A stretch of DNA of 64,000 bases from Ignavibacteriaceae bacterium (GTDB taxonomy: Bacteria; Bacteroidota; Ignavibacteria; Ignavibacteriales; Ignavibacteriaceae), in the NCBI GenBank assembly GCA_035266865.1, contig DATFMR010000098.1, positions 3,952-67,951 on the forward strand, in the 5' to 3' direction. Of the stretch, positions 7,407 through 36,977 are shown piece by piece. Made by a program: the position numbers and the translations under genes. Position 1 is the stretch's first letter. The number at the start of each line of letters is the position of its first letter. The notes beneath the pieces were generated by a model that saw only the letters and a list, made by a program, of their open reading frames with translations, was not told the DNA's origin and did not search any database.

Positions 7407-8084
7407 ATGAAATTAAAATATTTTTCACATTCAGCTTTTCAAGTAACTTCTTCAAATGATAAAATAATATTAATAGACCCATTTTTAGACGATAATCCAA
7501 CCTCACCTGTTAAATCTGCTGATGTATCTGCAGATTATATAATTCTTACACATGCTCATGGTGATCATCTAGGTGATACAATTAAAATTGCAAAAAGGTG
7601 CGATTCAAAAGTAATTGCAGTAAACGAACTTGCAAATTATTGTTCCGATAAAGGAGCTGGCACTCATAATATGCATATTGGAGGATCACGGGAATTTGAT
7701 TTTGGAAAAGTAAAATTCACTATTGCCCATCATGGTTCGAAAACACCTGATGGTCAGTATGCGGGAGAGCCCGCAGGAATTTTGCTGACTATTGATGGAA
7801 AAACGGTTTATCATACAGGAGATACTAGTTTATTTTACGATATGAAATTAATAGGTGAAATGAACCCCGTTGATTATATGCTTCTCCCGATAGGTGATAA
7901 TTTTACTATGGGAATTACTGATGCTGTTAAAGCTGTAGAATTAGTTAATCCTAAGAATGTTATACCTATGCATTACAAAACATTTCCTGTTATTGATGCT
8001 AATCCAATGGAATTTAAAAATAAAGTTCAAAAGTTGGGCATAAATTGCCGAGTATTGCAATTTGGAGAAGAGATAGAATTGTAA
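7407..8084 (+). CDS. MBL-fold metal-dependent hydrolase (UPF0173-like)
   Basis: THAHGDH metal-binding motif. 225 aa. Confidence 0.8.
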   Translation: MKLKYFSHSAFQVTSSNDKIILIDPFLDDNPTSPVKSADVSADYIILTHAHGDHLGDTIKIAKRCDSKVIAVNELANYCSDKGAGTHNMHIGGSREFDFGKVKFTIAHHGSKTPDGQYAGEPAGILLTIDGKTVYHTGDTSLFYDMKLIGEMNPVDYMLLPIGDNFTMGITDAVKAVELVNPKNVIPMHYKTFPVIDANPMEFKNKVQKLGINCRVLQFGEEIEL

Positions 8085-8138
8085 CTATTTTTATCCTTCA
8101 AATTAAAATTAAAAAATATTTATTTAATCAGGAACTAA

Positions 8139-8927
8139 ATGGCAAAAGTAATTTCTGTAGCTAATCAAAAGGGAGGTGTAGGTAAAACTACAACTGCAAT
8201 AAATCTATCCTCATCATTAGCTGCTGCTGAAAAGAAGACTCTTTTAATCGATATTGATCCGCAGGCAAATTCTTCATCTGGATTAAGTGTACATAATCAT
8301 ACACCCTCTGTCTATGAGGTGCTAATTGGAGAACTGGAAATAAAAGACGCAATTGTAAACACGTATATGCCGAACCTGGATCTGATCCCTTCAAATATAA
8401 ATCTGGTTGGGGCCGAAATAGAAATGGTCGATATGGAAGACAGGGAAAGATTATTTAGTAATGCTGTGGCAAAAGTCAGAAATTTTTACGATTATATTAT
8501 AATAGATTGCCCGCCTTCTCTCGGGTTATTAACTCTAAATTCATTGGCTGGCTCAGATTCTGTGCTAATTCCAGTTCAATGTGAATATTTTGCTCTCGAA
8601 GGACTAGGACAGTTATTGAACACCATCAATATTGTAAAGCAGCATTATAATCCGGAGCTTACTATTGAAGGAGTCTTGCTGACAATGTTTGATATTAGAC
8701 TGAGGTTGTCACAACAAGTAGCAGACGAAGTAAAAAAATATTTCGGTGATAAAGTATTTAATACAATTATCCATAGAAATGTTAGAATATCAGAGGCCCC
8801 GAGTTATGGAAAACCTGTTATTTTATACGATGCGGTTTCAACCGGAGCAAAAAATTATATTGAACTTGCTTCAGAACTATTAAATAGAAATTCTAAAGAA
8901 AACTTAAACGCCAAAACCAATGAGTAA
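8139..8927 (+). CDS. parA: chromosome partitioning ATPase ParA/Soj
   Basis: Deviant Walker [12 protein letters not shown]. ParA-like throughout. Confidence 0.95.
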
Positions 8928-9867
8928 ACTAAAACCAGGATTGGGACGTGGCCTCGATGCATTAATTAATCCTGATGCACTAAGGGACAGCAAAAAAACG
9001 CCTGCAGATTATTCCGACCTTAAAAAAGATGAAGGCCATCAGGTTGATATAATGGCTAAAATCCCTGTAGATATGATTAAACCTAATCCCTTCCAGCCCA
9101 GATCCAACTTTGAGCCTGAAGCACTGGATGAATTAAAAAAATCTATACTTTCAAACGGATTGATTCAACCAATAACCGTAAGAAGAAGCGCTGATAAAGG
9201 TTACGAATTGATTTCAGGTGAACGCAGGTTAAAAGCATGCAAAGATATTGGATACAGAGATATACCTGCATATATAATTAAAGTAGACAGCAATGAGGCA
9301 ATGCTTGCCCTATCACTTATTGAAAATATTCAAAGAGAAAGATTAAATCCAATAGAAATTGGTCTGGCATATAAAAGATTAATAGAAGAATGCTCTTTAA
9401 CACAGGAAGAAATTGCTGAAAAAGTAGGTAAGGACAGGTCAACTGTAGCAAATTCAATCAGACTACTCAAACTACCACCGGAAATTCAGGAAAGTTTAAT
9501 AAAAGATGAAATTTCATCTGGACACGCCCGCGCAATTATCAATCTTCCAACTTCAAGTCTTCAATTAGGTGTTCTTAAAAAAATAATTAATAATAACCTG
9601 TCGGTTAGAAAAGTTGAACAACTTGTTAAAAAAATTATTACAGAAACTTCAACACCCAGAAGAAATGTATCAGGAAAGCATACAGTAAAGATCAGTTCTT
9701 CAAATCTCTCTGATGTTGAAGATAAGCTAAGAAAAATTTTCGGAACAAAGGTTTCCTGCAAACAAAAGCAGGGGGGAGCAGGGGAAATCATAATTGAATT
9801 CTATTCTAACGATGAGCTGGAAAGGTTATTTGAGCTTTTTGAAATTATCGATAAAACATATAATTAA
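8920..9867 (+). CDS. parB: chromosome partitioning protein ParB/Spo0J
   Basis: ParB box GERRLKA plus an HTH region. Overlaps the parA stop by 8 nt. Confidence 0.95.
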
Positions 9868-15974: not shown

Positions 15975-16376
15975 CTATTGACTAACTTTTAGGGGAAAGA
16001 CATATTCACTTTTGGAAAGATATTGACTATTTCCAAATTCAAAGCTTTTTAATGCTTGTTCAACAGTATCGGCTACATTAAATATATTAATAGTACCTGA
16101 TTTTGCTAGAATTGTGTTAGCTATAGATTTCGGTTGTACAATACGTAGCTCCCCACTGATTTTGGCTACCTCTTTTAAAGTAATAACAAGTACGCCAATA
16201 AAAGTTGAATCTATAAACTCACATTGACTCAGATCAATAACCATTTTTCTGAATCCTTTTATAATATCCTGATTGAGGATATGCCTTAATAATCCAGCTT
16301 CTTTATAAGTGGCTCGTGTAAGGTTAACAGTTTCAACAATGATATCCTTAAAAATAGTTTTTTTGAAATCTTCCAT
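15975..16376 (-). CDS. STAS-domain protein (anti-sigma-factor antagonist-like)
   Basis: 133 aa. DLSQCEFIDSTFIGVLV resembles the SpoIIAA/RsbV DSSG region with Ser/Thr retained. Confidence 0.7.
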   Translation of the reverse strand: MEDFKKTIFKDIIVETVNLTRATYKEAGLLRHILNQDIIKGFRKMVIDLSQCEFIDSTFIGVLVITLKEVAKISGELRIVQPKSIANTILAKSGTINIFNVADTVEQALKSFEFGNSQYLSKSEYVFPLKVSQ

Positions 16377-16655: not shown

Positions 16656-17204
16656 TTAATTATTATTTTTGAGTGAATAGATTGGCAAATTAATCTGGAA
16701 ACAAGTTTCTCCAGGTTTTGACCTAACAGATATTTCACCCTTATGTTTTTGCGTTATTATATTGTGGCTTATGCTTAATCCTAATCCAGTTCCTTCACCA
16801 GGTGGTTTAGTAGTGAAAAACGGATCGAAAACCTTGCCCAGGATTTCTTCCGGAATGCCAGGTCCATCATCCATTAATTCTATTACAATGTTAAGACCTT
16901 GTTTATAAGTTTTCAGTATAATTTTCCCCGTCCCATTCATAGATTTAATTGAATTGTCGATAATATTTGTCCACACTTGGTTTAGTTCACTTCCGTAGGC
17001 TTGAATTTTAGGTATATCGGATGAATAATTTCTTTCAACAGTTATATTGCCTTTAAGCTGACTTCTTAGCATAACCAGAGTATTATTTAGTCCTTCATGA
17101 ATATCAACTGATTGAATGGGTCCCTGGTCAAGATATGAATATGATTTTAAAGCTTTTACAATTTCAGTAATTCTTCCTGCTCCCTGGCCGATTTCTTCAA
17201 TCAA
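16656..17204 (-). CDS. histidine kinase C-terminal fragment (end of DHp plus HATPase_c), probably a truncated remnant
   Basis: N/G1/F/G2 boxes present (DNSIKSM, DDGPGI, FDPFFTTKPPGEGTGLGL). No H-box and no sensor domain in frame. A stop lies 12 codons upstream of the TTG start, and only about 160 bp remain before the divergent gene. Confidence 0.6.
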   Translation of the reverse strand: MIEEIGQGAGRITEIVKALKSYSYLDQGPIQSVDIHEGLNNTLVMLRSQLKGNITVERNYSSDIPKIQAYGSELNQVWTNIIDNSIKSMNGTGKIILKTYKQGLNIVIELMDDGPGIPEEILGKVFDPFFTTKPPGEGTGLGLSISHNIITQKHKGEISVRSKPGETCFQINLPIYSLKNNN

Positions 17205-17419: not shown

Positions 17420-18859
17420 ATGACAAAAAAAAATTCTATCATAATTATAATTCTTCTTTTCGCTTTGTCTGCAAAAGGACAGACGATTGGGCATGTTACG
17501 GTAAAAACCTGGCCGAATGACATGAAGTCGGCTTTTTCATTTACATTTGACGACTGTTTTAAATCACAATACGATTACGCATTACCGGTTTTAAATTCAT
17601 TTGGTTTTAAAGGAACGTTCTATGTAATTGCTGAAGAACCAACCGAACAGGGCGAACCTTTAAACTGGCGATATGCTACCTGGGACCAATTCAGGGAAAT
17701 TGCCCAACAGGGACACGAAATAGGTTCTCACAGTATGACCCATCCGCATCTCCAAACGCTACAAACAGGAGATATAAACACACCTAATACAATTTATTAT
17801 GAATTGTATCAATCCAAAAAATTAATCGAAAATAAAATTCCGGGCATAAAAGTAATAACATTTGCTTATCCATATACTGAATACAATCCGACTGTTATAT
17901 CCATTGCAGGTCAATATTATGAGGCTTCCAGAAGAGGAAATGGCATACCTAATAATTCTGTAATAACAGGTACTGATTGGCAAAAAATAAATTCATATGA
18001 AGTGCAGTTCAATCTTCCAAGGGATATTGTTAATGATGACAATGACGAATTAAATGAAATTGAGAATACACTGCAAAATGAAGTAATTGATAATGGCAAA
18101 TGGGGAATGTTATTTGCGCATGAGGTTTTGCCTTTTTCACAGATTCCTGATGCAGTTGCTGCCGGTTATTGGTACCCTATGTCCACAGAATGGCTGAATG
18201 CTTTTTGCCAATGGATGAAAAATAAATCAGATAATAATGATATTTGGGTAAACACAGTTGCAAACGTCACAAAATATATAAAGGAGAGAGAAAACTTTGT
18301 AGCAAATGTAGTTTCAGTAACTGATACCTTAATCGTGTTAAGTCTTACCGATAATCTTGATGATACAATCTTCAATTATCCTCTAACCTTGGACATACAG
18401 GTTCCTTCTGTCTGGGAAACTGTATTGATCAAACAGGGAGGAATTACAATACCGACAGATTCTATTTTTGTAGCAGGAAATAATACCTATGTTAGAACTA
18501 AAATCATTCCCGATGCAGGCAATATAAGTCTTAAAAAAGATGCAACTACAGGAATTGCAATTAATAATAACATTCCCATTGAATACAAATTAATGCAAAA
18601 TTACCCGAATCCATTTAATCCAAGTACAAAAATTGGATACATAATACCATTTGAAAGTAAAGTATCGATAAAAATATTTAATTTATTAGGACAGGAAATA
18701 AAAGAGTTACAAGGTTCTACAGAATCTGCGGGATATCATGAGGTATTGTTTAATGCCAGTAATTTAGCTTCTGGAATTTATTTCTACAAAATTGTTGCAA
18801 TTTCAACCAATGGTAAGAATATATTTGTTGATACCAAAAAACTGAATTTTACTAAATAA
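17420..18859 (+). CDS. secreted polysaccharide deacetylase (NodB-type) with T9SS C-terminal sorting domain
   Basis: Signal peptide MTKKNSIIIIILLFALSAKGQ, TFDDC and HSMTHPH NodB motifs, and a C-terminal YPNPFNPSTKI...YFYKI Por/T9SS tail. ATG 17420 is preferred over TTG 17366. Confidence 0.8.
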   Translation: MTKKNSIIIIILLFALSAKGQTIGHVTVKTWPNDMKSAFSFTFDDCFKSQYDYALPVLNSFGFKGTFYVIAEEPTEQGEPLNWRYATWDQFREIAQQGHEIGSHSMTHPHLQTLQTGDINTPNTIYYELYQSKKLIENKIPGIKVITFAYPYTEYNPTVISIAGQYYEASRRGNGIPNNSVITGTDWQKINSYEVQFNLPRDIVNDDNDELNEIENTLQNEVIDNGKWGMLFAHEVLPFSQIPDAVAAGYWYPMSTEWLNAFCQWMKNKSDNNDIWVNTVANVTKYIKERENFVANVVSVTDTLIVLSLTDNLDDTIFNYPLTLDIQVPSVWETVLIKQGGITIPTDSIFVAGNNTYVRTKIIPDAGNISLKKDATTGIAINNNIPIEYKLMQNYPNPFNPSTKIGYIIPFESKVSIKIFNLLGQEIKELQGSTESAGYHEVLFNASNLASGIYFYKIVAISTNGKNIFVDTKKLNFTK

Positions 18860-18906
18860 ATATTGAATACCTGCCTAATTAACTTCAATTAGAAATTCCC
18901 TTTCCG

Positions 18907-18929
18907 CTCCGTATTAATACTTAGTGAGT
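18907..18929 (+). promoter_or_regulatory. repeat element copy A (CTCCGTATTAATACTTAGTGAGT)
   Basis: Shares its first 15 nt with the 20-mer family and matches 20/23 with the reverse-strand copy at 23651-23673. Confidence 0.7.
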
Positions 18930-18991
18930 AACGTTAAAGCCAATTTTATTTCGTTTTATGTCTAAAATCAAACTATTCAAAATCATCTTTT

Positions 18992-19011
18992 CTCCGTATT
19001 AATACTGATTC
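18992..19011 (+). promoter_or_regulatory. repeat element copy B (CTCCGTATTAATACTGATTC)
   Basis: Exact 20-mer, identical to the copies at 21494 and 23742. Palindromic core GTATTAATAC. Confidence 0.75.
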
Positions 19012-19184
19012 TTTTAATCTCATTTATGGTTAGCTTAAATAAGAATTATCGGGAATTGCAAAATTTGCCGATTATTCTGAAGAAATTTTAGTTAAAACTA
19101 AAAAAAGGATAAAAGTTACACTTGCAATTAATATACTGCAATCAAGGATAAACAATAATCAAGATTCTTTATCCGGTGCATGTT

Positions 19185-19568
19185 TTAATTAATAATTAAA
19201 TGCGAATGAAGAGTTTCGAGCAATTGATCTTTTTCATAGGGCTTTATTAAAACATTGCTGAAACCCAGTTCTTTTAAATACTGAATATCCTCAGTGTAGG
19301 AATTTCCAGCTACAACAATTATCGGAATAGATTTGTATTTTTTTATTTCTCTCAGAGTAAACATTAAATCTATTCTGCTGGTTTCGGTAGAACGATCAAT
19401 ATTTATTGTTATTGCCGAATAGTTATATTCTGCAACAAGTTTTTCGGCTTCTTTTATTGATACAGCTACATGACAGAAAAATAAACCTTCAACATATTCC
19501 TGAATCAGCAAAGGGCTATCAAGTTTATCATCTACCAGTAGCAAATAGGGTAAATTTGATGTATTCAT
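19185..19568 (-). CDS. single-domain response regulator (receiver only)
   Basis: LLVDD acidic pocket, candidate phospho-Asp in TINID and an LIKPY lysine. No output domain. Confidence 0.75.
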   Translation of the reverse strand: MNTSNLPYLLLVDDKLDSPLLIQEYVEGLFFCHVAVSIKEAEKLVAEYNYSAITINIDRSTETSRIDLMFTLREIKKYKSIPIIVVAGNSYTEDIQYLKELGFSNVLIKPYEKDQLLETLHSHLIIN

Positions 19569-19894
19569 TTTCTCCCCGTTTTCTTTTAGGCTGAGTGGAA
19601 TCTAACCCAAATTCTGGCAAATCCCAAACCGTTTACTAACTGAAACCTGCCGTTGGATAACTCAAATGACACAAATCTGGGAAAACAGGACCGAAACCGC
19701 GCGAATTCAGGTTTAAAGCATATTCGGAAGAGACGCTCAAATTTCACCCAAAAGAGGGAAGTTGCAGGCCGATATGAGGCAAATATAAATAAGAAAATTA
19801 ATTGACGGGACAGACCTTTCAGGGGAGAGGTTATCCCGATTCATTTAATACTTTTAAAATAGTAACTGTTAATTAACCAAAAATATAATTAAAG

Positions 19895-20260
19895 ATGAAA
19901 TCACATACCAGAAGAGCGGTTGCACTAATATCTGCTACTATTATCAATAAACAGACATATTCTTTAATACAGAATATTGAAAATTATGAATTTCATAAAC
20001 TTTCGTGCAATATCCTTCCTACAATGATTGATGCCTATGATGATGAAATGAAATGTTTTATAAAGGGGAACATTAAAGAAGATAAGATTTCTATTTACCA
20101 TTTCGGTAATGCCAATTATATTGATCTAAAAATAAATAATAATCACTTTGAAGGTTTTGATTATGATTCAGTAACTGATTTTACAGGGGACTTGAACGAC
20201 GATCAAATTTCGTTAAATGATCATGAATACCAAAAGGTTTTTGAGTATTTAGTGAAATAG
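19895..20260 (+). CDS. hypothetical protein
   Basis: 121-aa acidic ORF with no signal peptide. No motif recognised. Confidence 0.45.
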   Translation: MKSHTRRAVALISATIINKQTYSLIQNIENYEFHKLSCNILPTMIDAYDDEMKCFIKGNIKEDKISIYHFGNANYIDLKINNNHFEGFDYDSVTDFTGDLNDDQISLNDHEYQKVFEYLVK

Positions 20261-20693
20261 TAGGAATATTTGTTAAATCTATTTCATATTTAATGACCAG
20301 TGCTTTCAACTAAGACAGATACAAGAGAAAGATTTAAATAAACAAGATAATCTTGATTATTAAAATGGGACTTATAATATTTTGATTATATACAAATCAA
20401 AAGAAATTTTATTAAACTACATTAAAAGAGCATTAAAGTAATAATTAAATTGACAATATTATTCCAGATTTTTAGCTTCAAGTTTTTCAACAAAGTCCAT
20501 TCACACCTTCAATATTCCTTAATATTAAATAATATTATTAAATTAAGGATTTTTAGACAACCGACAGTTTGGTTTTGAAATATAGCAATATTAATATCAT
20601 TTTAAGGATAAAATTTATTCATTAGTAAAAATTTCAAATAAAATAATTAACTTCTACATAGTATTTATTTTAAATATTTTAATAAGCAATAAT

Positions 20694-21425
20694 ATGTTTA
20701 TGAAAAAAAGTACAAAAGTATTTTTATCCTTATTTTATATTGTTTTTACAATTTCCGGATTTTCCCAGGATATTGCTAATAAAGAAAGCAGGGGAACAAG
20801 AACGATATTCCTGATCCGGCACGGCGAATATTCCTCCCAAATGGACAATAAATCGGATGCAGGAAAAAGACTCACTCCTCTCGGAATTGCACAAGCCAGG
20901 TTGGTTTCTGCAAGGTTAAAAGCAATGAATACAAAATTCAATTCTCTTATCAGCAGCACTATGACAAGAGCAAGGGAAACAGCGGAAGTTATAAACCGTG
21001 ATTTCCCGGAAATGAAGCTCGAACAATCTGATCTAATAAGAGAATGCACTCCGCCTACGTGGAGAAATGATATTATGGCGGACAGAGATTCAACAGATAT
21101 TGGTTGTGTCGAAAATCTAGAAAGAGCATTCAAAAAATACTTTGTCCCTTCTCCGGATGGTAAAGATCGTAATGATATAATAGTCTGCCACGGAAATGTG
21201 ATTAGATATTTTGTGACAAAGGTATTAAAAGTCGATGAAATGTCGTGGTTGCAGATGAGTATTTCCAATTGCAGTTTGACAATCGTAAGGATCTTACCCG
21301 ATGAAAGAATGAAACTGGATGTATTCAGCGATTACGGACACATTCCGGAAAATATGAGAACATTTACGGGCGGCGAGAATAAGTCAAAAGAGCTATTGAT
21401 AAATAAGGAGAATATCCACCACTAA
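20694..21425 (+). CDS. exported histidine phosphatase superfamily (phosphoglycerate mutase-like) protein
   Basis: Signal peptide (KKSTKVFLSLFYIVFTISGFSQ), catalytic LIRHGE and a distal CHGNVIRY histidine. Confidence 0.75.
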   Translation: MFMKKSTKVFLSLFYIVFTISGFSQDIANKESRGTRTIFLIRHGEYSSQMDNKSDAGKRLTPLGIAQARLVSARLKAMNTKFNSLISSTMTRARETAEVINRDFPEMKLEQSDLIRECTPPTWRNDIMADRDSTDIGCVENLERAFKKYFVPSPDGKDRNDIIVCHGNVIRYFVTKVLKVDEMSWLQMSISNCSLTIVRILPDERMKLDVFSDYGHIPENMRTFTGGENKSKELLINKENIHH

Positions 21426-21493
21426 AATTCATTTACTAATTCCGTCTAGTCCATCAGATTAAAACCTTCAAAACTGCCAAATTTTCAATTTTG

Positions 21494-21513
21494 CTCCGTA
21501 TTAATACTGATTC
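21494..21513 (+). promoter_or_regulatory. repeat element copy C (CTCCGTATTAATACTGATTC)
   Basis: Exact 20-mer ending 56 nt upstream of ATG 21570. An AAGGGAG SD lies between them. Confidence 0.75.
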
Positions 21514-21569
21514 CTTTTACATATATGAGTAATATATTTTACAGACTTAATTATCCAAGGGAGTGAAGT

Positions 21570-21800
21570 ATGAGAGAGTTTATAATTAAAAAACAACTGG
21601 AGCATTTTATTTTGGATAAATTTGTTAATTTCGAGGAGTATCAGGATAAGTTTTACTTGAAAAAGAGAATCCAGGAAATTGTACCCGGGAAAAATGATGA
21701 TATAGTGTACCGGGCGATTGAAGAGGCAAATACCGTTTTAAAACCGCCGCGGAAAAGAACTGATTACATCAGAGTATTGCTGGAGAATCTTCAAATTTAA
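21570..21800 (+). CDS. small hypothetical protein, first gene of the HK/RR operon
   Basis: 76-aa ORF with an SD (AAGGGAG). It ends 16 nt before the kinase start. Confidence 0.5.
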   Translation: MREFIIKKQLEHFILDKFVNFEEYQDKFYLKKRIQEIVPGKNDDIVYRAIEEANTVLKPPRKRTDYIRVLLENLQI

Positions 21801-21816
21801 TTTGGAAAAATTCTAA

Positions 21817-22983
21817 ATGAATTTTGATAGTCTTATAGATATTTTTTTTGACGCAAATAACCCAATATTTTTCGCACTCTTATTTACTTTTATTTTAGCG
21901 ATTACTTTTTATCTGATTCACAAGTATGTACGCCTTCCTGATATACAAAAGCATAAGCTCGAACTAAATGAAGCCGAATTAAGAAATGCGCGCGTTATGG
22001 CAATGTTCGCAGAGCTTGATCCTGATCCTTTGATAAGAATTGACCCGGATGGAATAATAATAAAAACCAATGATGCCGCAAAAAGATTTTTTGAAAATCC
22101 TGTAACTGAAAACACAAATATTAATAAAATTTTACCGGGTATAGATTTTTCAATTTACGATTTTGTTTACGGAGATAAATCTGAAATAATTTATAACAAA
22201 ATAGGGGAGAGATATTATTCAATATCAATAAAAGGAATTTCATATCTGCATATTGCACAGCTTTACTTTAATGACCTAACAGATAGAATAAAATTTGAAA
22301 AGGAATTAAAATTATCACAGGAACAACTGAAAGAATTGATTAATTATGAACAGAATATGATTGAGGACGAGCGAAAAAGACTTGCAATGGAACTTCACGA
22401 TGGAATCGGACAGGATCTGGTTGTAATGAAAATGAGCGCTTCAAATGCGCTTGAAAAAGCAAAGAACAATGAAGATATTCAGTATTATAAAAAGCTCTTA
22501 AATTCACTGGATAATACAATTAATAATTTAAAAGGTGTTTTGTACGATCTGAAACCGAGAGTACTTGAGGAACTTGGATTAGAAGCAGCAATTAAGACAA
22601 TGAGCAAAAAAATTACTGCCGAATCAGGTATTACAAGCCACGTAAATTTTAGTGGCTTAAATGAGAGGCTTGATGAAAAACAGGAAACGACCATTTACAG
22701 AATAGTTCAGGAAGCCTTAAATAATATTGTAAAACATTCTGGGGCTAAAGAATATGATATAAACCTGTTTTCCAGGGATGGGAAAATTAAAATAATAATT
22801 TCAGATGACGGCACCGGGTTCGAAACGGAAGGGAATAACTTTTCTACTTCCGGATTTGGCCTGAGAGGAATTAAAGAAAGGGTTGAAAATAATCAGGGTA
22901 CTTTCAATATTGAATCTTCAAAAGACTCAGGCACAGAAATTATGGTTGAACTGCCTAAGAGAGAGAAGCAAAATGAAAAATGA
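21817..22983 (+). CDS. sensor histidine kinase, HisKA_3 (NarX/DegS-like) class
   Basis: One N-terminal TM helix, a PAS-like region, the H-box ELHDGIGQDL and HATPase_c (EALNNIVKHS, DDGTGF, GFGLRGI). Confidence 0.85.
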   Translation: MNFDSLIDIFFDANNPIFFALLFTFILAITFYLIHKYVRLPDIQKHKLELNEAELRNARVMAMFAELDPDPLIRIDPDGIIIKTNDAAKRFFENPVTENTNINKILPGIDFSIYDFVYGDKSEIIYNKIGERYYSISIKGISYLHIAQLYFNDLTDRIKFEKELKLSQEQLKELINYEQNMIEDERKRLAMELHDGIGQDLVVMKMSASNALEKAKNNEDIQYYKKLLNSLDNTINNLKGVLYDLKPRVLEELGLEAAIKTMSKKITAESGITSHVNFSGLNERLDEKQETTIYRIVQEALNNIVKHSGAKEYDINLFSRDGKIKIIISDDGTGFETEGNNFSTSGFGLRGIKERVENNQGTFNIESSKDSGTEIMVELPKREKQNEK

Positions 22984-23659
22984 AAAAAACATAAGAATTT
23001 TACTTGGTGATGATCATTCGTTATTGAGAGAAGGAATTACCAGCATACTACAGAACGAAAAAGATCTATTTATCGTGGGAGAAGCTGAAAACGGCGTTGA
23101 ACTAGTAGATAAATATTTTAAGCTAAAACCGGATATAGTTATTACGGATATTACAATGCCTAAAATGTCCGGAACAGATGCTTCTAAAAAGATAAAAAGA
23201 AAAGAACCGGAGGCTAAAATTCTTTTCTTATCGATGCACGAAGGTGAAGAATACATTTATTACACTTATAAAGCAGGGGGTTCGGGACTTGTTAACAAAA
23301 ATATAATTAAGGGAGAGCTCATTTTTGCTATAAGGAAAGTCCTTAACGGTGAGTTTTATTTTGGCCCGGATATAGATTCAAATATTTTAGGTAAAATTAT
23401 TGAAAGCTACAGCAGCGATTATAATTATTTAAAGAATAAATACAATTTAGATATTTCAGAAAGAGAGGTTGATGTATTGCATTTAATAGGAGATGGCTTA
23501 TCAAGCACAGAAATTGCTGATAAACTAGGAGTAGGGAAAAGGACAATAGATACTCACAGGATAAACCTTATGCAGAAATTAAATTTAAAAAACCTTCCGG
23601 CACTTATCAGGTTTGCAGTAAATTTTAACCAGGAATTTAAAGACAAACCTACTCACTAA
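22973..23659 (+). CDS. NarL/LuxR-family response regulator
   Basis: REC domain (LLGDDH, ITDITMP) plus a LuxR HTH (LSEREVDVLHLIGDGLSSTEIADKLGVGKRTIDTHR). ATG 22973 overlaps the kinase stop by 11 nt. Confidence 0.9.
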   Translation: MKNEKNIRILLGDDHSLLREGITSILQNEKDLFIVGEAENGVELVDKYFKLKPDIVITDITMPKMSGTDASKKIKRKEPEAKILFLSMHEGEEYIYYTYKAGGSGLVNKNIIKGELIFAIRKVLNGEFYFGPDIDSNILGKIIESYSSDYNYLKNKYNLDISEREVDVLHLIGDGLSSTEIADKLGVGKRTIDTHRINLMQKLNLKNLPALIRFAVNFNQEFKDKPTH

Positions 23660-23673
23660 GTAGTAATACTTAG
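23651..23673 (-). promoter_or_regulatory. repeat element copy E (reverse strand CTAAGTATTACTACTTAGTGAGT)
   Basis: 20/23 identical to copy A but inverted. It overlaps the last two codons and the stop of the response regulator. It is also self-complementary (CTAAGTA-gtaa-TACTTAG). Confidence 0.65.
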
Positions 23674-23741
23674 GCAACTGATATAGTAACTTTAAATATG
23701 CTCATTTTGGGCTACAATCAACGATTTTAAAATTTAACACA

Positions 23742-23761
23742 CTCCGTATTAATACTGATTC
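23742..23761 (+). promoter_or_regulatory. repeat element copy D (CTCCGTATTAATACTGATTC)
   Basis: Exact 20-mer ending 73 nt upstream of ATG 23835. Confidence 0.75.
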
Positions 23762-23834
23762 ATTTTCTAAGCTTATCCAATAGATTCATCATGGCTTAAA
23801 TAACTATTTTCCTAACAAATAAAGGAAAACGGCC

Positions 23835-24272
23835 ATGAATCACACCTTTAAGACAACCGCATTTTTTCTATTCTTTTTTCTTTTCTCCACCGGCACATCG
23901 TTCAGCCAGAATTACGGACAGATATTTTCTAAATCGGAAGCAAACCAGGATTTTGGAGCAGTAACAAGTACAATAACAATTACTACTTCACAGCTTCAAA
24001 ACGTTTTAAATAAAACTGCAAATGTTTTGATGTTTAGAATTAAAGATAGTAATTTATTGGTGCTCGGAGATGATAGGAATGTTTTGTATGGTTCTACCGA
24101 ATCAATTCCTCCGGCAGATGTTTACAAAGTTTACAGTAAATCTAAAATTAATGAATTAATTAAATCCGGCGGAACAAATACAGTATTCATTGAACAGAGA
24201 GAGAATGCATTAACAATTACAATTGGAGAATACACTTTAGAAATGGGTGCGGATTGTCCTCCATGGTGTTAA
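23835..24272 (+). CDS. secreted hypothetical protein with C-terminal CPPWC
   Basis: Signal peptide TTAFFLFFFLFSTGTSFSQ. 145 aa. The only two Cys are in the terminal ADCPPWC. Confidence 0.55.
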   Translation: MNHTFKTTAFFLFFFLFSTGTSFSQNYGQIFSKSEANQDFGAVTSTITITTSQLQNVLNKTANVLMFRIKDSNLLVLGDDRNVLYGSTESIPPADVYKVYSKSKINELIKSGGTNTVFIEQRENALTITIGEYTLEMGADCPPWC

Positions 24273-24279
24273 TAATTTT

Positions 24280-24858
24280 ATGACATTTGAATATTTAGCA
24301 ACTTATTTAAACTCATTTGCATATATTCTTCCGCCATTCCGTCAATATGGCGGAAGATATTTCATTTATTTTGTTGTACTTGCGTTGGGAAATCCATTCA
24401 TAGTTCTTCTTGCAGAAACCAACCACATAAATCCCAACTATTCAATTTGCATGGTAGCATGGGCAGCATTTGTATCAATTATTGATAAAAAATGGATAAA
24501 AGAGAGAGCCCTATACTTCATAATTTTGACCTTGTTATTATATTTCGGAGTATTCTATTTAGAACATACAGTTGTACGAATTATAATCATAACTCTTAAT
24601 TTTTTTATATTGTTTCATTTTATAAAAGAAGCAGCCAAATATTATGGTGAAAATTATTCGCTTCATTCCGGATTCTTTATTCTTGCATTATATGAAATTG
24701 GCATAATTTCAAAATTATACCTTATTGTAAGCAACATTAAGCTGGGAGTAGCTTATTTCTACCTGACCGATCTTTTTGAAATACTTATAGCAATTTTCTT
24801 CACTTTTTATAAAGTCGAAAATTCACCAATAATCAGGTTTAAAAAAGTTGAAAAGTGA
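24280..24858 (+). CDS. hypothetical polytopic membrane protein
   Basis: About 6 hydrophobic helices. ATG 24280 lies 8 nt after the preceding stop; the track start 24247 overlaps the upstream gene. Confidence 0.5.
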   Translation: MTFEYLATYLNSFAYILPPFRQYGGRYFIYFVVLALGNPFIVLLAETNHINPNYSICMVAWAAFVSIIDKKWIKERALYFIILTLLLYFGVFYLEHTVVRIIIITLNFFILFHFIKEAAKYYGENYSLHSGFFILALYEIGIISKLYLIVSNIKLGVAYFYLTDLFEILIAIFFTFYKVENSPIIRFKKVEK

Positions 24859-24995
24859 AAATACACATTTGCCCCCATAATTGAATAATATCAATAATAC
24901 AAGCTTAATAATTATTTCTGGATTTTATTAATAAGAATTATTCTTTAGTTTTGTAGAAACCTTTCTATATTAATTTAATTATTGCCGATTATATA

Positions 24996-26477
24996 ATGAA
25001 AATAGTATTATCAGATAAACCTAAATGTTTTTGCGGGATATTCGGAATATATGGGACACCCACTGCTTCAGTTAAAACCTATTACGGTCTTCATGCATTA
25101 CAGCATAGGGGACAAGAAGCAACAGGAATTGTAACTCGCGATTTAAATGAACGTGGTAAATCAATTTTTAATATACATAAAGGCGAGGGGCTTGTTTCCG
25201 AAGTTTATTCGGATGCTCAAATATTAAAAAAAAACCTTACCGGAAATTCTGCTATCGGACATAACAGGTATTCTACTACGGGTTCGTCAGAATCACTTAA
25301 TAATATTCAGCCATTTGTTGTAAACTACAGATTAGGTAATCTGGCAGTTGCCCATAACGGAAACTTAACAAATGCAAAAGAACTTCGTGAGGAACTTGTT
25401 AATGAAGGAGCAATTTTTCAAACAACAACAGATACAGAAGTTATACTCCATTTGATTGCACGTAGCAAATTAAACAATCAGGTTGAAGGAATAAAAGAAG
25501 CACTTTCTAAACTTGAAGGTGCCTATTGCCTGACAATTATTACTGACACCTCTGTAATTGCAGCACGTGACCCTTATGGGTTCAGACCGCTTTCTCTTGG
25601 TAAAATTGGTGATTCATTTTTAATAGCTTCAGAGACTTGCGCCTTTGATATTTTATCGGCTGAATTTATACGTGAAGTTACACCCGGTGAAATGATGATT
25701 ATCGACGATGAAGCAATAGCTAATAGGCAAGTAAAGTCAATTTCCCTGGCAAAGGTTCAAACTCCTAAAAAACACTGCATTTTTGAATTTATTTATTTTT
25801 CTCGTCCTGACAGTTTTATCTTTGGTCATAATGTTGACAAAATGAGACGCAGACTGGGAAAAATACTTGCAAAAAACCACCCAGTAATGGATAAGGATGG
25901 AGAGAAAGTTATAGTTATTAGCGTTCCTGATAGTTCAAATACTTGCGCAATTGGATATCAGAAACAACTTGATAATGACGGCATTCCTTCACGTCTTGAA
26001 ATTGGATTGATACGAAGTCATTACATTGGAAGAACATTCATCCAGCCCGGCCAGGAAAAGCGCGAAATCGGGGTCCGCATAAAATTTAATATTGTAAAAG
26101 GTGTGCTGGAAGGTAGAACAGTTGTAGTGGTTGATGATTCAATTGTTCGTGGAACAACTTCAAAACAGCTTGTAAATTTAATTAAAGAAGCCGGCCCTAA
26201 GGAAATACATTTCAGAATCTCTTCACCACCTATTAAAAATCCCTGTTATTATGGCATGGATTTTCCCAGCAGGGAAGAGCTAATTGCAAATAAGCACAAC
26301 AATATTGAAGATATTGGAAAATACCTTGGTGTTGACAGTTTGGAATATCTGACAATAGATGAAATGTTGGAAACTGTCAGAGAAGAAAATCCTTCCAACT
26401 ATTGCACTGCCTGTTTCTCCGGTATTTATCCTACCGAAGTGGACGTCAATTTCAAAAAAGAGATGTACGAACTATAA
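24996..26477 (+). CDS. purF: amidophosphoribosyltransferase
   Basis: Short propeptide followed by the catalytic CGIFGIYG, a PRPP-binding VVVVDDSIVRGTT motif and C-terminal Cys ligands. Confidence 0.95.
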   Translation: MKIVLSDKPKCFCGIFGIYGTPTASVKTYYGLHALQHRGQEATGIVTRDLNERGKSIFNIHKGEGLVSEVYSDAQILKKNLTGNSAIGHNRYSTTGSSESLNNIQPFVVNYRLGNLAVAHNGNLTNAKELREELVNEGAIFQTTTDTEVILHLIARSKLNNQVEGIKEALSKLEGAYCLTIITDTSVIAARDPYGFRPLSLGKIGDSFLIASETCAFDILSAEFIREVTPGEMMIIDDEAIANRQVKSISLAKVQTPKKHCIFEFIYFSRPDSFIFGHNVDKMRRRLGKILAKNHPVMDKDGEKVIVISVPDSSNTCAIGYQKQLDNDGIPSRLEIGLIRSHYIGRTFIQPGQEKREIGVRIKFNIVKGVLEGRTVVVVDDSIVRGTTSKQLVNLIKEAGPKEIHFRISSPPIKNPCYYGMDFPSREELIANKHNNIEDIGKYLGVDSLEYLTIDEMLETVREENPSNYCTACFSGIYPTEVDVNFKKEMYEL

Positions 26478-36089: not shown

Positions 36090-36977
36090 TTAAGATTTTG
36101 GATGAGCCTTTTTATACGCTGATTTTAGCCGTTCCACACTAACATGTGTGTAGATTTGTGTAGTTGAGAGATTTTCGTGCCCAAGTATTTCTTTCACTGC
36201 ACGAAGATCGGCTCCGTTATCAAGCATATGTGTCGCTGCACTGTGCCTCAATATATGAGGGCTTTTCTTTTTTATATCCGTCACTTTTGATAAATATTTG
36301 TTAACAATTCTATGTACATACCGCGGATATATTCTTTTACCATTTCCATTAATTAATAAAGCTTCTTTACCTCCGCTTTTGGTTTTAATTAAAAGATATT
36401 CATTAATAATTTTAATTGATTTGTCACCAACAGGTACAATCCTTTCTTTATTCCCCTTTCCTCTTACTCTTAAAATTTTTTCTTTAAAATCCAGGCTTTG
36501 ATTATTAAGGCTACATAATTCTTCTACGCGCAATGCACAACCATAAAGTATTTCAATTATGGCTGTAATAAGTTTTGATTCATACTCATCATTTTCTTCT
36601 TTAGCAAGCTCATAAGTTTTCAGTATATCTTTTTCAGATACAATCTCCGGTAGTTTCCTTGCAGATTTTGGATTTGATATTCCGGATGCCGGGTTTACTT
36701 CGATATACTTATTCTGGAATGCAAATTTAAATAATCCTCTTAGTGCAGCAAGTTTTCGTGAAATTGAATTTTTACTAATTCCCTTTTCACTTAACATCAT
36801 TAGAAAAGATTTAATAAATCTTTCATTAATACTGGAAATGGAATTGCGGTCGTAAACAGAGCAATAAACTAAAAACTCTGTAAGATCAGTTTTATAAGAT
36901 TTAACAGTATTAGCAGAATATCTTTTAATGCTGCTCAAATCTTCAATATATTTTGAAAAGATTAAATTTATATCCAT
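36090..36977 (-). CDS. tyrosine recombinase, XerC/XerD family
   Basis: Catalytic signature ARVEEL...HILRHSAATH...LGHENLSTTQIYTHV. Confidence 0.85.
   Translation of the reverse strand: MDINLIFSKYIEDLSSIKRYSANTVKSYKTDLTEFLVYCSVYDRNSISSINERFIKSFLMMLSEKGISKNSISRKLAALRGLFKFAFQNKYIEVNPASGISNPKSARKLPEIVSEKDILKTYELAKEENDEYESKLITAIIEILYGCALRVEELCSLNNQSLDFKEKILRVRGKGNKERIVPVGDKSIKIINEYLLIKTKSGGKEALLINGNGKRIYPRYVHRIVNKYLSKVTDIKKKSPHILRHSAATHMLDNGADLRAVKEILGHENLSTTQIYTHVSVERLKSAYKKAHPKS

Follow-up and report, generated by a model that had tools for sequence, protein, structure and literature searches.

Does the pair of inverted repeats found in an uncultured member of the Ignavibacteriaceae enclose a mobile or invertible gene cassette, or do its two arms belong to the regulation of the adjacent genes? 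The pair is located in a 64 kb stretch of DNA (in the following, the window) from a metagenome-assembled genome, at a locus encoding a two-component system (TCS) of a HisKA_3 histidine kinase (HK) and a NarL/FixJ-type response regulator (RR) with REC and GerE domains. A first-pass annotation described two arms around a 4.7 kb segment and proposed relics of a mobile element, a substrate of site-specific inversion or excision, or paired operator sites. The gene content reported between the arms, i.e., an orphan receiver (REC), a hypothetical protein of 121 aa (hyp121), a histidine phosphatase (HisPhos), a protein of 76 aa (s76), the kinase, and the regulator, was confirmed by Pfam. The genes of a secreted protein (p145) and a membrane protein (mem192) follow beyond the right arm (Table 1). 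We consider it likely that the arms are two auxiliary operator boxes, here termed class B, in the putative regulon of the adjacent TCS.

A Palindromic Box Family Restricted to the Locus

Both arms contain a copy of an 18-nt palindrome, CTnnGTA-N4-TACnnAG, which occurs five times within 18.9-23.8 kb and nowhere else in the window. The boxes start at positions 18907 (c1), 18992 (c2), 21494 (c3), 23742 (c4), and 23656 (c5), and all of them are intergenic or located at a gene end. The 20-mer CTCCGTATTAATACTGATTC, previously recorded at 18992 and 23742, is indeed present at both positions, and a fifth copy of the box, c3, situated inside the supposed cassette, had been overlooked. Exact matches to CTCCGTATTAATACT were found at c1, c2, c3, and c4, all on the + strand and all intergenic. 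Allowing up to three mismatches, 11 strand-hits of this sequence were obtained compared to 1.8 expected, and none of 100 shuffled sequences reached 11. In a scan of the whole 64 kb with a position weight matrix (PWM) for the 18-nt box, trained on 23 boxes from the window and its relatives, c1 to c5 were the only sites detected. No site was found between 19010 and 21493, and hence no box upstream of REC, hyp121, or HisPhos. The box family is far beyond chance, unlike the inverted pair formed by the arms.

Two classes of boxes were distinguished. Class A comprises c2, c3, and c4 with the form cTaCGTA-N4-TACTGATTc; these boxes end in TACTGATTC, followed after 19 nt by the hexamer TAnnTT. Class B comprises c1 and c5, i.e., the arms of the first-pass annotation, and its form CTArGTA-N4-TACyTAG, which we take as the operator consensus, is more symmetric than that of class A. 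The box core, GTATTAATAC, is identical to its reverse complement, 16 of the 18 positions of c5 obey the symmetry, and perfect 18-nt palindromes occur in the related loci L011 and L031. The dyad symmetry spans 16-18 bp, a size that fits a dimeric helix-turn-helix protein. No Rfam family was matched at the boxes, at gathering or permissive thresholds, and the exact 20-mer had no match among the GTDB representative genomes, which do not include the source species.

The Arms as an Inverted Pair

The letters of the arms had been given correctly: positions 18907-18929 read CTCCGTATTAATACTTAGTGAGT, the reverse complement of 23651-23673 reads CTAAGTATTACTACTTAGTGAGT, and 20 of 23 positions are identical. 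The TAA of the regulator gene (23657-23659) lies in the right arm, as reported. In the best register returned by a repeat finder (18911-18930 and 23650-23669), the arms form a 20-nt inverted pair with 19/20 matches (95%). Three inverted pairs of at least 19/20 are present in the window, compared to 0-8 (mean 1.4) in 30 dinucleotide shuffles, and the c1/c5 pair taken alone is at chance level. The two further 19/20 pairs (16677/56594 and 48261/52551) equal the reported pair and are likewise consistent with chance.

Because the box core is a palindrome, the orientation of the arms is nearly undefined. Inside the 18-nt box, c1 and c5 agree at 15 of 18 positions in direct and in inverted orientation alike. 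The 20/23 match thus stands, but the claim that it is an inverted one depends solely on six flanking bases, TGAGTA, and we regard the inverted relation of c1 and c5 as incidental. The locus may serve as a cautionary case, since palindromic operators recurring around an autoregulated locus always mimic inverted repeats that bracket the genes in between.

Promoter-Like Geometry of the Boxes

Relatives of the locus were gathered by orthology of the regulator (51-68% identity), which yielded nine loci (L004, L007, L010-L014, L030, and L031). When 18 A sites of 9 loci were aligned by their boxes, the information was highest in the box, in TGATT, and in the hexamer TAnnTT, which is common to all 18 sites at columns 40-45, exactly 19 nt beyond TGATT. 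The intergenic alignments are otherwise diverged, and the invariant columns, i.e., the box, TGATT, and a TA.ATT hexamer, form a phylogenetic footprint. A boxes are always oriented toward the downstream gene, with a distance to the ATG of approximately 70-90 nt in case of s76 and of 85-93 nt in case of the p146 family, to which p145 belongs. If TAnnTT is a -10 element, the centre of the palindrome is placed at approximately -42, next to a poor -35 region. Class II activator-dependent promoters have this geometry, and a poor -35 region beside the box is typical of activator-dependent promoters. Accepting this geometry, c3 would mark an autoregulated promoter of the s76-HK-RR operon (21570..23659) and c4 the promoter of p145-mem192, whereas the predicted c2 transcript runs toward the 3′ end of the convergent REC gene.

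An assignment of the hexamer to the Bacteroidota-type -7 box (TAnnTTTG) was tried and rejected. As this 8-mer is not enriched upstream of the genes in the window (3 observed compared to approximately 6 expected), TAnnTT is named only a “-10-like hexamer” here. A generic scan for sigma-70 promoters and terminators returned fewer promoter-like matches than were found in shuffled sequences.

Class B boxes are located upstream of A boxes at spacings of 85 bp (c1-c2), 86 bp (c5-c4), 77 and 87 bp (L010), and 74 bp (L014 and the additional locus L025, see below). Examined as possible duplicate units, the c1-c2 and c5-c4 spacers show a marginal likeness (p ~0.04) and their downstream regions are dissimilar. 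A hairpin is predicted downstream of c2 (19042-19078, z = -2.85).

At the predicted 5′ end of the p145/p146 mRNA a leader, (G/A)CTTAAATnAACTATTTTC, was observed, in the window at 23793-23811 and approximately 25-40 nt before the start codon. The leader also occurs in L004, L007, L011, and L012, and it is kept even where the upstream box is degenerate or was not detected. A similar sequence, GCTTAAATAAGAATTAT, follows c2, located 10 nt nearer to the box than the p145/p146 leader.

Conservation of the Module and Its Boxes

In the relatives, the conserved unit consists of the s76 family, HK, RR, the p146 family, and the mem192 family, in this order and often with a duplicated membrane protein gene. 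The s76-HK-RR genes, located inside the arms in the window, are always contiguous with p146-mem192, located outside the right arm, in all relatives that carry the module. No homologues of REC, hyp121, or HisPhos were found at any of the related loci, and the upstream neighbours differ among them (trp operon, GATase, amylase, TonB receptor). The segment between the arms therefore does not constitute a unit, and the right arm falls within the conserved module.

A boxes equivalent to c3 were observed upstream of the s76-HK-RR operon in L004, L007, L011, L012, L013, L014, L030, and L031, and those equivalent to c4 are located 85-93 nt before the p146 ATG in L010, L011, L014, and L004. A B box directly after the regulator stop occurs in the subclade of the window, L010, and L014, for which a box in this position is ancestral. 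In L010 and L014 it starts 7-10 nt after the stop, and the C-terminal tail of the window regulator is slightly longer; the overlap of c5 with the stop codon is thus incidental. B boxes situated 74-87 bp upstream of A boxes, as in the window, also occur in L010, L014, and L025, and in case of L004, L007, L011, and L012 B boxes are found 21 bp upstream of a degenerate A box.

Apart from the HisKA_3 kinase and the REC+GerE regulator, no gene is shared by all TCS loci with boxes. L031, whose regulator is 51% identical to that of the window, lacks p146 and a clear s76 and has other neighbouring genes; the box is kept upstream of HK-RR. This box, ATCAGTATAAGTACTGAT, shows perfect dyad symmetry (ATCAGTA-TAAG-TACTGAT), and TATATT is located 19 nt beyond the TGATTC that follows it. 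An s76-like ORF (open reading frame) on the opposite strand of L031 is a doubtful match (E = 0.006).

Scanning metagenome contigs with the window box returned 11 chance matches in unrelated DNA, the known locus, and a single new locus, L025. L025 is another contig from the same metagenome as the window, with the same guanine plus cytosine (GC) content; a c1-type B box and an A-type box are situated 74 nt apart on it, and a DUF3892 gene follows downstream. The neighbouring genes encode a PP2C-type phosphatase, glycosyltransferases, and a peptidase, and no recombinase was found among them. The pair in L025 is the behaviour expected of a trans-acting factor with a small regulon.

The Regulator as Putative Binder

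Among the proteins of the module, the regulator is the only one with a detectable DNA-binding domain (Pfam, NCBIfam). Its closest solved relatives are VraR/LiaR (5hev, 4.5e-31), NarL (1a04, 1e-23), DesR, and EvgA, and all box-linked regulators share the recognition helix SKRT[IV]D[TS]HR. We infer that the regulator binds the boxes, that binding activates transcription, and that the transcripts start downstream of the -10-like hexamers. In this model, the phosphorylated regulator would bind the class A boxes as a dimer. The A box would abut a weak -35 region, and the regulator, placed at approximately -42, would activate in a class II manner. It would act on its own operon through c3, on the p145-mem192 operon through c4, and on a transcript from c2. 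The class B boxes c1 and c5 are probably high-affinity auxiliary sites which recruit or stabilise regulator oligomers at the promoter. Of the earlier proposal of paired operator sites, the operators are retained, but the arms are not paired with each other; instead each arm pairs with its own promoter-proximal box 85-86 bp away.

It is rather unlikely, in our opinion, that the boxes are real cis-regulatory sites with another binder, either an unlinked factor or s76, or that the regulator represses. s76 is conserved in most box-bearing loci and L025 shows that the factor acts in trans, both of which would suit a different binder. On the other hand, L031 retains the box and the promoter geometry together with HK-RR and without a clear s76, and the recognition helix of the regulator is the same wherever a box is present. 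As a DNA binder s76 was considered and is not supported, since no DNA-binding family or fold was matched. Its predicted structure is four-helix (pLDDT 82.5, the predicted local distance difference test score), with no significant fold match in the PDB and no Pfam match even at E = 5. Repression would be conceivable for a palindrome at approximately -42 that overlaps the -35 region and could occlude RNA polymerase, but the poor -35 region speaks for activation.

In the window, the recognition helix reads ...GKRTIDTHRIN... (approximately 23540-23575), with Asp at the position of NarL Lys188 and LiaR Lys177, and this Asp is invariant throughout the box-linked clade. The Lys in question is the guanine-contacting residue (PMC4482077). 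The Asp may relate to the AT-rich GTA/TAC site.

Several observations weigh against regulation of the boxes by the adjacent TCS. Every promoter position was deduced from sequence geometry, and downstream of c2 neither an ORF of more than 21 aa nor a recognisable gene was found. Strict helical phasing is not supported, because the B-to-A spacing varies from 74 to 87 bp. L025 is placed in the same genome solely by sample and GC content, and the TGAGTA that flanks both c1 and c5 is not explained by the box consensus. Finally, specificity is not assignable by analogy, because the half-sites differ from the NarL 7-2-7 arrangement and from the LiaR consensus.

Evidence Bearing on a Mobile or Invertible Cassette

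That the arms are terminal inverted repeats of a (formerly) mobile cassette, or that the 4.7 kb segment is a substrate of site-specific inversion or excision, is extremely unlikely, and this interpretation is already largely refuted. Besides the 20/23 inverted match, it could draw on the last 12 bases shared by the arms, owing to which an inversion would keep the last codons and the stop of the regulator gene, and on the lineage-specific occurrence of REC-hyp121-HisPhos. Two genes in the surroundings might also be quoted in its favour, a tRNA-Pro gene at a distance of 3.2 kb on the left side and, 12.4 kb to the right, the gene of a tyrosine recombinase resembling XerC/D. As shown above, the arm pair is at chance level and matches equally well in direct orientation within the box, and the box has three more copies, one of which lies within the segment. 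In the relatives the module runs across the right arm, and the box at the stop codon is ancestral in position; no relative shows a unit that is present or absent exactly at the arms.

All ORFs of at least 70 aa between the arms and within approximately 10 kb on each side were scanned for recombinases. Neither between the arms, as already stated in the first-pass annotation, nor within approximately 10 kb was a transposase, integrase, or invertase found. The only recombinase among the scanned ORFs is the tyrosine recombinase of 295 aa (36090-36977, - strand), with XerC as best match (310 bits, cutoff 335) followed by XerD, and it resembles housekeeping XerC/D. The flanking genes are housekeeping genes as well (parAB, purF, ftsY, holB, hprK). 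A mobile-element relic receives no support from the sequence composition or the junctions either: no GC or compositional step was observed at the arms and no target-site duplication, with outer flanks ATTCCCTTTCCG and GCAACTGATATA devoid of a common direct repeat. Furthermore, the sole extra copy of the arm sequence found in metagenomes (L025) is not located beside a recombinase gene, as had been suggested as a check, but beside another box of the promoter type that precedes a small gene.

The window is collinear with three independent assemblies of its population (L001, L002, and L003). Samples containing this population are JGI 3300007775, JGI 3300026196, and SRR5210470. L001 is 100% identical over 18380-25705 and spans both arms; L002 and L003 are 99.8% identical and span the right arm. 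None of them shows the alternative orientation, a result of limited power, since assemblies report the majority orientation.

Hairpins and a Possible RNA Output

The right arm could also be read as an RNA hairpin at the 3′ end of the regulator mRNA, acting as stabiliser or weak terminator, with the likeness to c1 being a coincidence. CUAAGUA-GUAA-UACUUAG can indeed form a 7-bp stem with a GNRA-type loop, and a GC-rich terminator hairpin is situated at the same position in L011. We regard this explanation as very unlikely, since no U-tract follows the right arm, and c1 and the A boxes pair over only 3-4 bp yet conserve the same positions. In addition, the A boxes lie upstream of the predicted starts and would not be transcribed, and the conservation tracks the DNA dyad GTA/TAC with no compensatory stem changes.

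A different hairpin was observed in four relatives. After the last module gene of L004 (12557-12640), L007 (11927-12011), L011 (9977-10059), and L012 (6830-6914), all on the + strand, a conserved element of approximately 75-80 nt occurs, which is absent from the window. It comprises a 23-bp hairpin, AAAGAACATCTGG...CCAGATGTTCTTT, with the conserved loop GGACCAGGGCAGA and a U-run. The element hardly varies among the four loci, contains a single compensatory pair, and matches no Rfam family at gathering or permissive thresholds. Upstream of it, a B box is followed in the standard register by a degenerate A box and a TAnCTT hexamer, which gives the element the appearance of a small RNA under control of the regulator; alternatively, it may be a conserved terminator acting in both directions. 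Homology of this element to the hairpin that follows c2 was tested and rejected, since nhmmer and a covariance model with filters off found nothing.

It is tempting to speculate that these observations belong together, i.e., that the locus represents a previously undescribed, Ignavibacteriales-restricted module in which a HisKA_3 kinase and a NarL-type regulator, the latter with an unusual Asp in its recognition helix, are combined with a small four-helix protein, a membrane protein, and a secreted protein with CPPxC. The promoters of the module would be two-tier, with a box at -42 and a distal symmetric box 74-87 bp upstream. In the genome of the window, the c1-c2 promoter would drive a non-coding antisense transcript into REC, and an equivalent promoter in four related lineages would drive the conserved hairpin RNA of approximately 75 nt. 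Taken as a whole this proposal is doubtful; if true, regulated small and antisense RNAs would be an integral output of the TCS.

Genes and Boxes of the Locus

Table 1. Boxes and genes at the TCS locus, in coordinates of the window.
Feature	Position	Strand	Remarks
c1 (class B)	18907..18924	+	CTCCGTATTAATACTTAG; PWM 23.2 bits; left arm (to 18929); 85 bp upstream of c2
c2 (class A)	18992..19011	+	CTCCGTATTAATACTGATTC; -10-like TAGCTT at 19031-19036; predicted start ~19043
c3 (class A)	21494..21513	+	-10-like TATATT at 21533-21538; predicted start ~21545; box starts 76 nt before the s76 ATG
c5 (class B)	23656..23673	.	CTAAGTA-GTAA-TACTTAG, nearly perfect palindrome; right arm; 86 bp upstream of c4
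c4 (class A)	23742..23761	+	-10-like TAGATT at 23781-23786; predicted start ~23793 at conserved leader GCTTAAATAACTATTTTCC
REC, orphan receiver	19185-19568	-	Pfam; between the arms, outside the conserved module
hyp121, 121 aa	19895-20260	+	No Pfam family; between the arms, outside the conserved module
HisPhos, His_Phos_1 phosphatase with signal peptide	20694-21425	+	Pfam; between the arms, outside the conserved module
s76, 76 aa	21570-21800	+	No Pfam family
HK, HisKA_3 kinase	21817-22983	+	HisKA_3 8.3e-10, HATPase_c 4.9e-13
RR, REC+GerE regulator	22970-23659	+	Response_reg 2.6e-23, GerE 3.3e-16
p145, secreted, C-terminal CPPxC	23835-24272	+	No Pfam/NCBIfam family; outside the right arm
mem192, multi-pass membrane protein	24280-24858	+	No Pfam/NCBIfam family; outside the right arm

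None of the module proteins reaches an NCBIfam equivalog cutoff. Proteins of the p145/p146 family have a length of approximately 145 aa with an invariant CPPxC, and homologues are present in L004, L007, L010-L014, and L030. They are always followed by a multi-pass membrane protein of approximately 190 aa, which is duplicated in several lineages. Searching the GTDB representatives with the p146 profile returned only two loci, one of them already known.

In L030, the most diverged of the module-bearing loci, a DDE transposase (DUF772/DDE_Tnp_1) and an orphan receiver are situated directly after the module (8023-9786). The orphan receivers of the window and of L030 were compared as possible relatives and are unrelated (23% identity); orphan receivers thus adjoin the module in two lineages without homology. 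The 320-nt spacer between the divergent REC and hyp121 genes (19570-19890) contains no long ORF and appears richer in GC than the neighbouring intergenic DNA. No Rfam match was obtained for it at permissive thresholds, and it may represent a structured leader, an RNA, or a decayed gene. Further to the left, a 182-aa ORF (16656-17204, - strand) with a TTG start comprises HATPase_c only (1.3e-24), without HisKA or sensor domain, and adjoins a STAS-domain gene (15975-16376). This ORF may be a truncated kinase or the result of a miscalled start.

With the false lead of a mobile or invertible cassette removed, the uncultured Ignavibacteriaceae lineage gains a testable regulon, consisting of a consensus for the operator, a set of predicted promoters, and a conserved module of five genes, whose three non-TCS products belong to no curated family. 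The biology is that of standard two-component autoregulation in an uncharacterised system of a well-known kind, which is unsurprising to the specialist and on which no open question hinges.

Comparison with Known Systems

Like invertons (Hin/Gin, Fim, and those of Bacteroides), the locus has short inverted repeats separated by a few kb, and the 64 kb also encode a tyrosine recombinase. It differs from them in the lack of an adjacent invertase, in the five-member repeat family, in the ancestral position of one arm, and in the single orientation found in three assemblies.

The LiaFSR/VraSR systems are similar with respect to the HisKA_3 kinase and to a positively autoregulated operon with a neighbouring small operon for membrane or secreted proteins, which is putative here. 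LiaR autoregulates liaFSR, binds consensus and secondary sites, and becomes a tetramer on activation (PMC4482077). A primary site accompanied by secondary or extended sites and higher-order oligomers (PMC4482077) is likewise what we propose for the class A and class B boxes. Unlike in LiaFSR/VraSR, no homologue of LiaF, LiaI, or LiaH was found, the auxiliary boxes are 74-87 bp off and not adjacent, and the host is a Gram-negative-type member of the Ignavibacteriaceae. Judged by eye, neither class of boxes agrees with the LiaR consensus T(X)4C(X)4G(X)4A in any register.

Of the features of a NarL/FixJ-type operator, a cognate REC+GerE regulator with a HisKA_3 kinase, a dyad site of a size suited to a dimer, and a conserved promoter-like position in 10 loci were observed. 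NarL dimers bind inverted heptamers in a 7-2-7 arrangement, e.g., TACCCCTAAAGGGGTA (PMC4549865), and the boxes do not have this arrangement: in the NarL site (TACYYMT) TAC is directed outward with a 2-bp spacer, whereas here TAC is directed inward with a 4-bp spacer, AkrrGTA-N4-TACyymk. Further differences are the Asp at the Lys188 position and the failure to reach a NarL/NarP equivalog cutoff. As in NarL/NarP of E. coli, a REC+GerE regulator is combined with a dyad site for a dimer, the half-sites are heptamer-like and start with TAC (TACTTAG, TACCTAG, and TACTGAT), and strong symmetric sites are mixed with weaker asymmetric ones. NarL activates napF and yeaR from sites at approximately -38 to -49 (PMC4549865), and the putative position of the A boxes at approximately -42 is in good agreement with the activation sites at approximately -43 of napF/yeaR (PMC4549865).

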